From IMG/VR virus record IMGVR_UViG_3300041955_000531: 64,000 nucleotides of DNA; one strand, given 5' to 3'. A program made the translations under genes and the position numbers. Under the pieces are notes generated by a model that saw only the letters and a list, made by a program, of their open reading frames with translations, made no database searches and had not been told where the DNA came from. Source of the DNA: a virus. This document shows, piece by piece, positions 24,111 through 28,009 of this stretch (its first letter is position 1; the number at the start of each line of letters is the position of its first letter).

Positions 24111-24600
24111 GTAGAATCTTTTAGTTGTAGGGAGCTAGCTCGCCAGGACGGCAAGCCGAAGAGGAGGGTTACTTACTCTTTGGTTGCGGTAATGGCTTCT
24201 GCGGCTTATACATATTGACTGTCGCCGCTGCTAGTCGTGTGGCCCCATGGTTGAACCATGAGGCCTTCCGAACTTTCTTCTTGCCGGCCATTACCGTTTC
24301 CGGTTAGGCTGACTTGACGCCCGAGTTTGCCACCTTCGGCTGAGTCGGCTTGATAGCCTTTGCCTTGTGTGTGGTCGGGGACGCGAAGATCGGGTCGCCT
24401 ATATACGGGGTCTTGCTAAGTTGTGCTGGGGGTGTCTTAGACCCGTTACTATTCTTCATGTTGTTCTCCATTATTCTGTTTTTGCTTCTGTCGCCAGCCA
24501 CAATAGGGACAGACGAACTCGTCTTTCGGTTCCTTCTTTGAGGCTTGCTTATTGCATACAGGACACTTCATAGTACACATAGCATACCTCTTGGATATCA

Positions 24601-24730
24601 ATAGCGCACGGCTTACATGACAACCGCGCTGGCCTTCCGGTGGGCCAACTTCCAAATCGTCCAGCGTCCCGAACGATTCAGCACCTGCCCTCGGTGTACA
24701 GAGGGGCTACCTTGTCACTTTTCGCGCTAC
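24601..24730 (-). ncRNA. Candidate ~130-nt multibranch RNA
   Basis: Nested closing stems plus three hairpins, with G:U pairs favouring the - strand. Confidence 0.5.
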
Positions 24731-24737
24731 CAATCTT

Positions 24738-24849
24738 TGGAGCTCCAGGTGGGTTTTTCACCATACCGATTTTCACCGGCAACAGGAGTTTAGCCTGCCA
24801 CGACCCCCGGATTAGAAGTCCGGTGCTCTAATAACTGAGCTACTGAAGC
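24738..24849 (-). tRNA. tRNA-Arg(TCT)-like RNA with T loop replaced by a structured insert
   Basis: Acceptor, D and anticodon arms and CCA intact; about 45 nt with two hairpins inside GTGG/CCAC. Confidence 0.75.
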
Positions 24850-25916: not shown

Positions 25917-25993
25917 TGGCGGGCCTGGAGAGATTCGAACTCTCTAGTTGGCAGGTTAGAACTCTGCTGCTCGTCCAATCGAGCTTCAAGCCC
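25917..25993 (-). tRNA. tRNA-Arg(TCT)
   Basis: GCAGA-GTTCTAA-CCTGC (G32, 31-39 mismatch); A20; CCA. Confidence 0.8.
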
Positions 25994-26238: not shown

Positions 26239-27135
26239 TTACTGTGGCAGGTTGGTTCGTTGCTGGTTTGTATCAGCTGTCCTACCTGGTTCATCTTTCA
26301 TGCGATCAACCAAAGTGGACCTCGTTTCTGGCTTGCCTTTCGACTTCTTACAAATAGCTTCGTACGCGGCCAGAGCGCGATCACGGATGTCTTCATCCGG
26401 ATGCATGTATCCTACTATCTCGAGCGCTTCTCGAGTGTGGTGCCGGAAGTGAATAGGCAGGTTGCCCCACTCCGACGGATACATTTCGAATCTGGTCTCC
26501 AAGTTCATGAACTCTCTGTCCTTCATGTAGTGCGTATCTTCTTTCACGTTCTTCATTACAACCCAACGCAACCAGTGTGTAATTCTTCGGACTTCATCTT
26601 CTGTGGCGATGTCCGATCCGCGCATGGCGCAGAATAAAGCCGACTGCATCTTGCCTGTCAGCTGTAGAACCCAGTCCTGTATTACCCATTCGCCGCGGGC
26701 AATAGGACTGTCATCTTTCAGGCGCTGGATTATATCCACACGATCTTCTGGCAGAATACTCTCGTGCTCTGTCAGATCATGATAGGCCTTCAATGCTTTT
26801 GCCTGGGTCCACTCGTCAGGGTGGAAGAAGGCTATGATAGCCAATGACTGTTTCAGGTGATCGTAGAAGTGTGTCTTCAGACGATCCCATTGCCAAGCAT
26901 CTTGATCCATAAGCGCTTTGATATCAATGAACTCTGTGTCTCTCATGAAATGAGATCTCGGATTGTTCAGCTTGATGCACTGCTTACGGATCCAACGTAC
27001 GACTCTCTTCACTTCTGGTGAATCATCTGAGTCGGCGCCACGGAAAGAGGCAACAAGCTCGGACTGCATACGTCCGGACATGCCGACCTCTTTGATCCAG
27101 TCCTTTAGATTGCACTCGCCTGGCTCGATGATCAT
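26239..27135 (-). CDS. Hypothetical protein with tandem duplicated ~140-aa domain
   Basis: GRMQSELVASFRGAD..HF.DHL..L.II.F.HPD repeated as GKMQSALFCAMRGSD..HF.HH...L.IV.Y.HPD. Confidence 0.8.
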   Translation of the reverse strand: MIIEPGECNLKDWIKEVGMSGRMQSELVASFRGADSDDSPEVKRVVRWIRKQCIKLNNPRSHFMRDTEFIDIKALMDQDAWQWDRLKTHFYDHLKQSLAIIAFFHPDEWTQAKALKAYHDLTEHESILPEDRVDIIQRLKDDSPIARGEWVIQDWVLQLTGKMQSALFCAMRGSDIATEDEVRRITHWLRWVVMKNVKEDTHYMKDREFMNLETRFEMYPSEWGNLPIHFRHHTREALEIVGYMHPDEDIRDRALAAYEAICKKSKGKPETRSTLVDRMKDEPGRTADTNQQRTNLPQ

Positions 27136-27936: not shown

Positions 27937-28009
27937 TGATTGGGGAATCCGGTCTCGGTCCGGAATCTCCCGGTACTATCCGGGGCTTTCGATCTTAAGC
28001 TATTCCCCA
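27937..28009 (-). ncRNA. tRNA-like RNA with non-canonical loops
   Basis: All four stems pair; 6-nt anticodon loop ATAGTA; T loop ACCGAGA; ends ATCA. Confidence 0.6.

Follow-up and report, generated by a model that had tools for sequence, protein, structure and literature searches.

Phage genome and tRNA array

The analyzed stretch of DNA (IMG/VR record IMGVR_UViG_3300041955_000531; 64,000 nucleotides, hereafter the window) comes from a large uncultured phage. Genes are present for virion proteins, a primase-helicase, ribonucleotide reductase, RecA, ThyX and thymidylate kinase. The minus strand between 15.1 and 28.6 kb carries an array of 25 tRNA genes and a tmRNA, and a Pth2-like gene is also present in the array. 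As the phage carries a tmRNA, its host is bacterial. No close relative of the window phage was found in the GenBank phage collection, in which the neighbouring tRNA-Gly gave the sole match. Metagenomes do hold relatives, including a 215-kb IMG/VR contig assessed as complete by CheckV (G001, the record of locus L001), and the best explanation is that the element described here belongs to uncultured phages of about 215 kb.

The complete relative encodes two proteins of the RNA ligase family (RNA_ligase, PF09414) at 194727-195302 and 214331-214735, and RtcB was not found in this 215-kb genome. Together with the tmRNA, the Pth2-like gene and a metallophosphoesterase near the array, the two ligase-family proteins are consistent with tRNA repair. 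The canonical U34 tRNAs of the array have lost U33, and the U34 tRNAs other than the element carry C33. A second, canonical tRNA-Arg(UCU) gene is situated at 25917-25993 in the window, 1.1 kb from the element, as had been noted in the original prediction.

A protein of 298 aa encoded at 26239-27135 on the minus strand of the window is located inside the tRNA array in all relatives, with 62-94% identity. It has no Pfam or PHROG match. The consensus of its alignment suggests a two-fold repeat within the protein, in which His and Asp motifs are conserved.

Structure of the tRNA-derived element

The features of the element and of the RNA following it are listed in Table 1. A tRNA-Arg(TCT)-like body with normal acceptor stem, D stem, anticodon arm and CCA had been predicted, and all of these parts are read on the minus strand. 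The locus L031:6102-6213 possesses the same sequence as the window element. U8 and A9 lie between the acceptor and D stems, A26 follows the D arm, and at the 3' end the acceptor stem is followed by U73 and CCA (24741-24738). The anticodon loop in the window is 7 nt long with U33 and a purine at position 37. A cloverleaf with stems of 7, 4, 5 and 5 bp and a 3' NCCA was found in all nine orthologues. An uninterrupted 17-nt T arm is not present in the window element, in which the 5' strand of the T stem contains 36 extra nucleotides.

Table 1. Features of the tRNA-derived element and its downstream region in the window
Feature	Position	Strand	Remarks
Whole tRNA-Arg(UCU)-derived RNA, 112 nt, with encoded UCCA 3' end	24738..24849	-	80.6 bits with model R1
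Acceptor stem, 5' strand; 7 bp with 24742-24748	24843..24849	-	100% paired in nine orthologues
D arm; 4-bp stem and 8-nt loop AGUUAUUA, without G18-G19 and A20	24825..24840	-	
Anticodon arm; 5-bp stem and loop CUUCUAA, anticodon UCU at 24814-24816	24807..24823	-	
Variable loop GGGUC	24802..24806	-	RGGUC in 9/9; C48 can pair with G15
T stem, proximal three pairs (GUG) with CAC at 24749-24751	24799..24801	-	paired in 3/3 inserted sequences
Insert hairpin 1; 5-bp stem, 7-nt loop CUAAACU	24782..24798	-	predicted by folding
Insert hairpin 2; 7-bp stem, GNRA tetraloop (GAAA)	24764..24781	-	
Distal T stem (GG/CC), 7-nt T loop UGAAAAA (24754-24760) and T-stem 3' strand CCCAC	24749..24762	-	
Trailer AAGAUUG after CCA	24731..24737	-	
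Co-conserved multibranch RNA, 129 nt, downstream of the element	24602..24730	-	seven lineages examined

ARAGORN made no call for the element when run on the window. The tRNA family of Rfam (RF00005) gave 34.2 bits (gathering score 29) and covered only 24778-24849. In the fold proposed by Rfam, hairpin 1 is used as the T arm, the acceptor stem has two mismatches and CCA is absent, and this fold was dropped because the uninserted relatives cannot form it. tRNA was the sole Rfam family obtained for the element or the insert, and no intron family was reported.

Like the trailer of the element, about 15 of the 26 trailers listed contain an A/U-rich motif (AGUUU, AGAUU or GAUU) a few bases from the 3' end. 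The motif appears similar to RN|WUU, the sequence preference of RNase E. The common trailer motif suggests that the element would be processed like its neighbours in the array.

Orthologues and covariation

Orthologues were searched for through the 298-aa protein, which lies 1.4 kb upstream of the element, then through a small downstream protein, and by pattern scan. Nine distinct orthologues were obtained from related uncultured phages. Three of them contain the insert, while the six without it are 75-77 nt long (L001, L016, L026, L030, L038 and L077). Pattern scans based on the uninserted T arm or on the downstream RNA returned only the two relatives that were already known. Each genome has a single element at a constant position, and the complete relative likewise contains one copy. 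Its upstream neighbour is tRNA-Gly(UCC) in the window, L001, L021 and L202; in L016 a short ORF intervenes. Duplication from this adjacent tRNA-Gly(UCC) was ruled out because the D and anticodon arms differ. Among canonical tRNAs, the best match is a tRNA-Arg(UCU) of bacterial type, with 70 bits under R1, in line with the predicted derivation from tRNA-Arg(UCU).

The nine sequences were aligned to a covariance model (R1) built here. Standard pairs account for 97.9% of the 189 pair cells, and the three cells scored as 'unpaired' reflect an artefact of the alignment where the insert joins the stem. Double-sided changes are found at 13 of the 21 pairs, a level reached by none of 500 shuffles, and slid controls were 25-55% paired. 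Four of the seven acceptor-stem pairs and all five anticodon-stem pairs show changes on both strands, whereas G1-C72 and C2-G71 are invariant. Outside the stems, U8, A9, A14, G15, A21, GGUC of the variable loop, U34, U36, A37, A38, A57 and CCA are invariant in all nine orthologues. The U-A dinucleotide of the D arm is also kept, and the base 5' of A21 is C or U throughout. A18, G55, A58 and U73 are each found in eight of nine, the discriminator being G in L202.

The divergence of the element is about that of the canonical tRNAs of the array, which fits a gene under selection and not a relic. Because the pairing covaries, the shuffles and slid controls fall short and the divergence matches that of canonical tRNAs, a decaying pseudogene is very unlikely and the element is regarded as a selected RNA that derives from tRNA-Arg(UCU).

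The T-arm insert

Comparison with the six uninserted orthologues showed that the T arm without the insert reads GUG + GG / CCCAC around a 7-nt loop. In these orthologues the proximal T-stem pairs run on into the distal ones, and their T arms align with the distal T stem and loop of the window element. The insert is 36 nt long (24798-24763) and interrupts the T stem on its 5' strand, with pair 51:63 before it and pair 52:62 after it. The position of the junction is ambiguous by 1 nt. With the insert, the T arm is predicted to form a four-way junction. It had been proposed that a two-hairpin domain takes the place of TTCGA. Two hairpins do lie between GUG and CAC, but the T loop is not replaced, as the non-canonical 7-nt loop UGAAAAA persists on a 5-bp T stem in the light of the six uninserted orthologues.

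Inserts of 36-38 nt occur in the clade of the window, which comprises the window itself (identical to L031), L021:4917-5029 and L202:918-1031. All 34 pairs hold in the three inserted sequences. The stem of hairpin 1 is identical in all three, with a single loop change in L202. In hairpin 2, four of the eight pairs are changed on both strands and pairing is 100%, with GAAA or GUAA as the loop in the three lineages. The homolog search and covariation analysis suggested in the original prediction thus show that the insert is not unique to this genome, since it recurs in three lineages with compensatory changes. On the basis of the neighbouring 298-aa protein, L021 is the closest relative (94%), and the insert is absent from L001 (89%) and from more distant relatives. 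Its restriction to the window, L021 and L202 makes it look like a derived gain that has been kept since. Exact-pattern scans of IMG/VR for the inserted form gave either no match or only chance matches in coding DNA.

Other readings of the insert were also considered. A long variable arm was ruled out because three T-stem pairs precede the insert. A group I intron would need more than 36 nt. Neither a hammerhead core nor a bulge-helix-bulge was seen by eye at the insert, and no other copies of hairpin 1 as a repeated element were found in the window. The hairpins are presumably too short for RNase III-type excision. A T-stem expansion of this type was not found described in the literature searched. 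The sequence conservation of hairpin 1 suggests a putative binding site, which would be superfluous for a decoder.

The elbow

G18-G19, U55-C56 and A20 are absent from all nine orthologues, and neither GG nor UUC is present. The absence of G18G19 from the D loop had been predicted for the window. The other 24 window tRNAs all keep GG + UUCRA elbows, and A20 is present in both canonical tRNA-Arg genes of the window. The one orthologue without A18 has C55. Position 56 is never C in the nine orthologues. With the D loop numbered as A18-K19, a numbering that is ambiguous, L202, L038 and the window have U:A at 19:56, L021 and L077 have G:U, and the remaining four are mismatched or unclear.

The same search pattern identified about 119 variant-elbow tRNA genes from cellular genomes, mostly tRNA-Thr, with C56 in all. 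In these cellular tRNAs A18 is accompanied by G55 and G18 by C55. The viral matches outside the element family behave likewise and keep C56. The 18:55 change therefore appears to be an alternative elbow that is already found in nature, and the loss of the G19-C56 face seems to be what sets the element family apart. A coordinated loss of the elbow had been proposed. The canonical elbow bases are indeed missing in all nine orthologues, but A18 with G55 in eight of them and C55 in the exception point to substitution; we read the elbow as rebuilt by coordinated substitution and not lost, the pairing itself being predicted.

A non-standard, strictly covarying 18:55 combination was observed in many viral and cellular tRNA genes (IMG/VR loci L033-L081; genome loci L082-L161 and later). 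The carriers are mostly tRNA-Thr and some tRNA-Gly, from Saccharibacteria and other Patescibacteria, Actinobacteria and Chloroflexi. Their T loops read UGCAAAU or GGCAGAG with A18/G55 and UCCAAUU with G18/C55, and C56 is always kept.

Anticodon and identity elements

The middle base of the anticodon (position 35) varies between C, U and A among the orthologues, giving UCU, UUU and UAU, with U or A in five. Position 33 also varies and is A in four orthologues. The anticodon loop has 7 nt in seven of nine, 6 nt in L016 (seen in three independent contigs) and 8 nt in L077, with perfect stems. UCU, UAU and UUU read AGA, AUA and AAA, the classic rare codons that phages often supply, and U34 with U36-A37-A38 is the set kept by working tRNAs for ANN codons. 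The L038 orthologue is called tRNA-Lys by ARAGORN. Wherever the array was recovered (window, L001, L016, L021 and L026/L027), a canonical tRNA with the same or the corresponding anticodon is present. The acceptor end is nearly constant (G1-C72 and C2-G71 in all nine, U73 in eight) while the meaning of the anticodon switches. A20 is the main determinant for bacterial ArgRS, along with C35 and U/G36 (PMC9976931). The window element possesses C35 and U36, and its position 20 is U, so A20 is lacking.

The downstream RNA and small ORFs

The 129-nt RNA is always located 3' of the tRNA-like RNA and 5' of a tiny zinc-ribbon ORF, and the gap to the tRNA-like RNA is 7 nt in the window and in L202. Further copies were found at L021:5105-5233, L001:12948-13075, L016:11317-11442, L026:11102-11231, L030:9598-9727 and L202:1039-1168. 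It has 44 predicted pairs with compensatory changes in 26, and conserved unpaired motifs including GAAAAG and UGUAAGCC. No Rfam match was obtained for it. In L030 both the element and the 129-nt RNA persist although no canonical tRNA is present within 14 kb, which hints that the two RNAs may belong together.

Three tiny ORFs follow the structured RNA on the minus strand of the window (24449-24580, 24304-24501 and 24169-24291) and are also present in L001 and L016. Their products are a zinc-ribbon peptide of about 43 aa with the pattern CPxC...CPxC, a protein of 65 aa and a basic peptide of 40 aa.

One or more minihelices, each formed by an acceptor-like stem around one or two hairpins and with GCCA or ACCA at its end, were observed in relatives and are absent from the window. 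They are found at L021:5037-5100, L001:12279-12330, just upstream of 11317 in L016, and at L030:9400-9590. They sit between the tRNA-like RNA and the 129-nt RNA, and all are followed by the same spacer of the AGAUU type.

Possible function of the element

We tentatively propose that the element is a non-decoding tRNA mimic, a ligand or decoy which acts through its anticodon loop and acceptor end. It would descend from a tRNA-Arg(UCU) gene and would have kept the tRNA body, namely the four stems, U8, A14, G15-C48, A21 and NCCA, together with the anticodon-loop face (U34, U36, A37 and A38). The elbow would have been rebuilt with non-standard bases, and in the clade of the window a two-hairpin module of 36-38 nt would have been gained in the T stem, where it may serve as a stabilising or protein-binding platform. 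Decoding would have been lost, and the RNA, once expressed and processed, would most likely act off the ribosome as a tRNA-shaped ligand, excluded from EF-Tu and the ribosome. Its most likely role under this proposal would be that of a decoy or competitor for host proteins acting on the anticodon loops of U34-tRNAs for ANA codons, for example anticodon nucleases. The anticodon decoy suggested in the original prediction is thus tentatively favoured, while the aminoacyl donor suggested along with it comes out weaker, as discussed below. The tmRNA, the Pth2-like gene, the RNA-ligase proteins and C33 in the U34 tRNAs form a possible setting of conflict over tRNA cleavage and were counted for the mimic. 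Counted against it, the elbow may be functional in an alternative form, as pairing would still be possible for U19:A56 and G19:U56; tRNA-Thr genes of cells also use A18:G55, seven of the nine loops have 7 nt, and the loop bases are of the ANN type with rare-codon anticodons.

The main alternative is a working elongator tRNA, for AGA here and AUA or AAA in relatives, which would have been hardened. Its elbow, position 33 and T arm would be altered to escape host tRNA-targeting defences or modification enzymes, and the insert would be a tolerated expansion segment or would be removed after transcription. This is somewhat unlikely in our judgement. The loss of U33 also from canonical U34 tRNAs of the array fits the published proposal that changes in the loop allow phage tRNAs to escape anticodon nucleases (PMC10264068). 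The seven 7-nt loops with U34, U36, A37 and A38, the sense anticodons for rare ANA codons, the intact acceptor stem with its NCCA end, the tRNA-Lys call in L038 and the use of A18:G55 by real cellular tRNAs all speak for it as well. On the other hand, A20 is absent, a near-constant Thr/Gly-like acceptor end accompanies an anticodon that changes its amino-acid meaning, loops of 6 and 8 nt occur with perfect stems in two lineages, and the canonical isoacceptor is duplicated. Moreover, the conserved, structured insert lies at T-stem pairs 51-52, in the region bound by EF-Tu in published structures, so that a clash with EF-Tu would be expected, and the sequence of hairpin 1 is conserved with no role in a decoder. 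On these grounds a role other than decoding is favoured, with some reserve, and the element is probably no longer an ordinary tRNA. A tRNA-Arg(UCU) duplicate that drifts without function and has received an insertion by accident would explain why gene finders miss the element and why a canonical copy lies 1.1 kb away. It is hardly credible, as double changes are numerous in every stem and in insert hairpin 2 and yet leave the pairing intact, and the locus is syntenic in nine lineages in which the neighbouring protein is just 62-94% identical.

A decidedly improbable explanation is a processing signal, a tRNA-shaped punctuation that recruits RNase P and 3'-end enzymes and so releases the 129-nt RNA and the small-protein mRNA. 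The CCA end 7 nt upstream of the structured RNA in the window and L202, the minihelices of relatives ending in GCCA or ACCA in the same place ahead of the same spacer motif, the trailer motif common to the real tRNAs of the array and the 14-kb contig L030, which keeps the element and the structured RNA with no canonical tRNA, would agree with such a signal. However, a conserved anticodon arm and four invariant bases in the anticodon loop would be superfluous for punctuation, relatives own simpler minihelices for the job, and the conserved insert would be left unexplained. The element could also be an extraribosomal aminoacyl donor, comparable to the non-proteinogenic tRNA-Gly of S. aureus; it would be charged via the acceptor end, and the changes in its elbow and T stem would bar it from EF-Tu. 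The cell-wall tRNA-Gly species of S. aureus likewise lack G18-G19, having U18U19 or C18U19, and deviate at 55 and 56 (PMC4574755), and invariant G1-C72 and C2-G71, U73 in eight of nine and an encoded CCA would suit charging. This role appears highly improbable, since A20 is absent, the identity of the anticodon differs from one relative to another, neither the Gly determinants C35-C36 and G3-C70 nor the Thr determinant G35 is present, and no homologue of FemAB (PF02388) or Leu/Phe-transferase (Leu_Phe_trans, PF03588) was found in the complete 215-kb relative or among the window proteins scanned. Beyond the mimic proposal itself, two wider schemes can be imagined, which are unlikely. The T-arm-expanded mimic, the 129-nt RNA and the zinc-ribbon and basic peptides might act jointly against host tRNA-directed immunity, or the acceptor end might be charged regardless of the anticodon, so that AGA, AUA and AAA would be read in a non-standard way.

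The element was compared with known systems. It shares the cloverleaf and the encoded CCA with bacterial-type tRNA-Arg(UCU) (RF00005), and its D stem, A26, anticodon arm and GGGUC loop are nearly identical to those of a phage-borne canonical tRNA-Arg(UCU) (L005:9699-9775). In contrast to tRNA-Arg(UCU), it lacks G18-G19, U55-C56 and A20, has U as discriminator and a 36-nt four-way-junction insert in the T stem, and its orthologues vary in the middle base of the anticodon and in loop length. The non-proteinogenic tRNA-Gly of S. aureus, which has a true tRNA body with altered 55/56 and is thought to act off the ribosome (PMC4574755), is by analogy the closest functional precedent for an off-ribosome tRNA without G18-G19. 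It keeps the Gly anticodon and identity and serves FemXAB, whereas in the element the anticodon varies, no transferase was found in the proteins scanned and the T stem carries an insert. Nuclease-resistant phage tRNAs (PMC10264068) likewise belong to phage tRNA arrays and have changes beside the anticodon in a context that suggests cleavage pressure, but they are canonical, working tRNAs with small loop changes, and no rebuilt elbow or expanded T arm is described for them. The plant mitochondrial t-elements and mascRNA resemble the element in having a tRNA shape directly before another RNA, a CCA-type end and a common trailer motif. They need no anticodon arm, while the element retains a complete cloverleaf with invariant bases in its anticodon loop. 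Class II tRNAs, with their long variable arm, and archaeal tRNA introns at non-canonical sites also add structured nucleotides on the side of the T arm. In class II tRNAs these are placed between 44 and 48, whereas the insert of the element starts three pairs into the T stem; in comparison with the archaeal introns, no bulge-helix-bulge was seen by eye and the host is bacterial. The element is classed here as a tRNA-derived RNA or tRNA mimic, and a structured, covarying T-stem insert is present in none of the compared systems.

Phage tRNA arrays are now regarded as weapons in a conflict over tRNA cleavage. To our knowledge, the examples described in this conflict are ordinary tRNAs with small loop changes, and the tRNAs that escape PARIS and retrons are reportedly of this canonical, working kind. 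The family described here would be a tRNA gene pushed much further under strong structural selection, with the outermost elbow pair rebuilt, identity bases lost and the anticodon free to switch, and one clade adds a covarying four-way junction to the T stem. If the decoy reading is true, the element would represent a counter-defence of a new, RNA-based kind. If decoding is still carried out, bacterial translation would tolerate a far larger change of the T arm than assumed, which would be relevant to the design of orthogonal tRNAs.

Other unusual tRNA-like loci

A second odd tRNA-like slot was observed between tRNA-Met and tRNA-Val (window 27940-28009, minus strand; L021:1568-1636; L001:9428-9497; L007:3588-3656). 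The window copy has a 6-nt anticodon loop, a D loop without GG and a non-canonical T loop, and lacks CCA. The copies in relatives possess a canonical T loop, differing anticodon loops (called Gln, Lys or unassigned) and a GCA end. Beside the L038 orthologue, a tRNA-shaped gene at L038:4045-4160 (minus strand) has a canonical T arm, but its D loop is larger by about 22 bases and its anticodon loop, which contains UUA, is unusual. It received no ARAGORN call. Loop inserts in tRNAs seem to be a recurrent feature of these phages.
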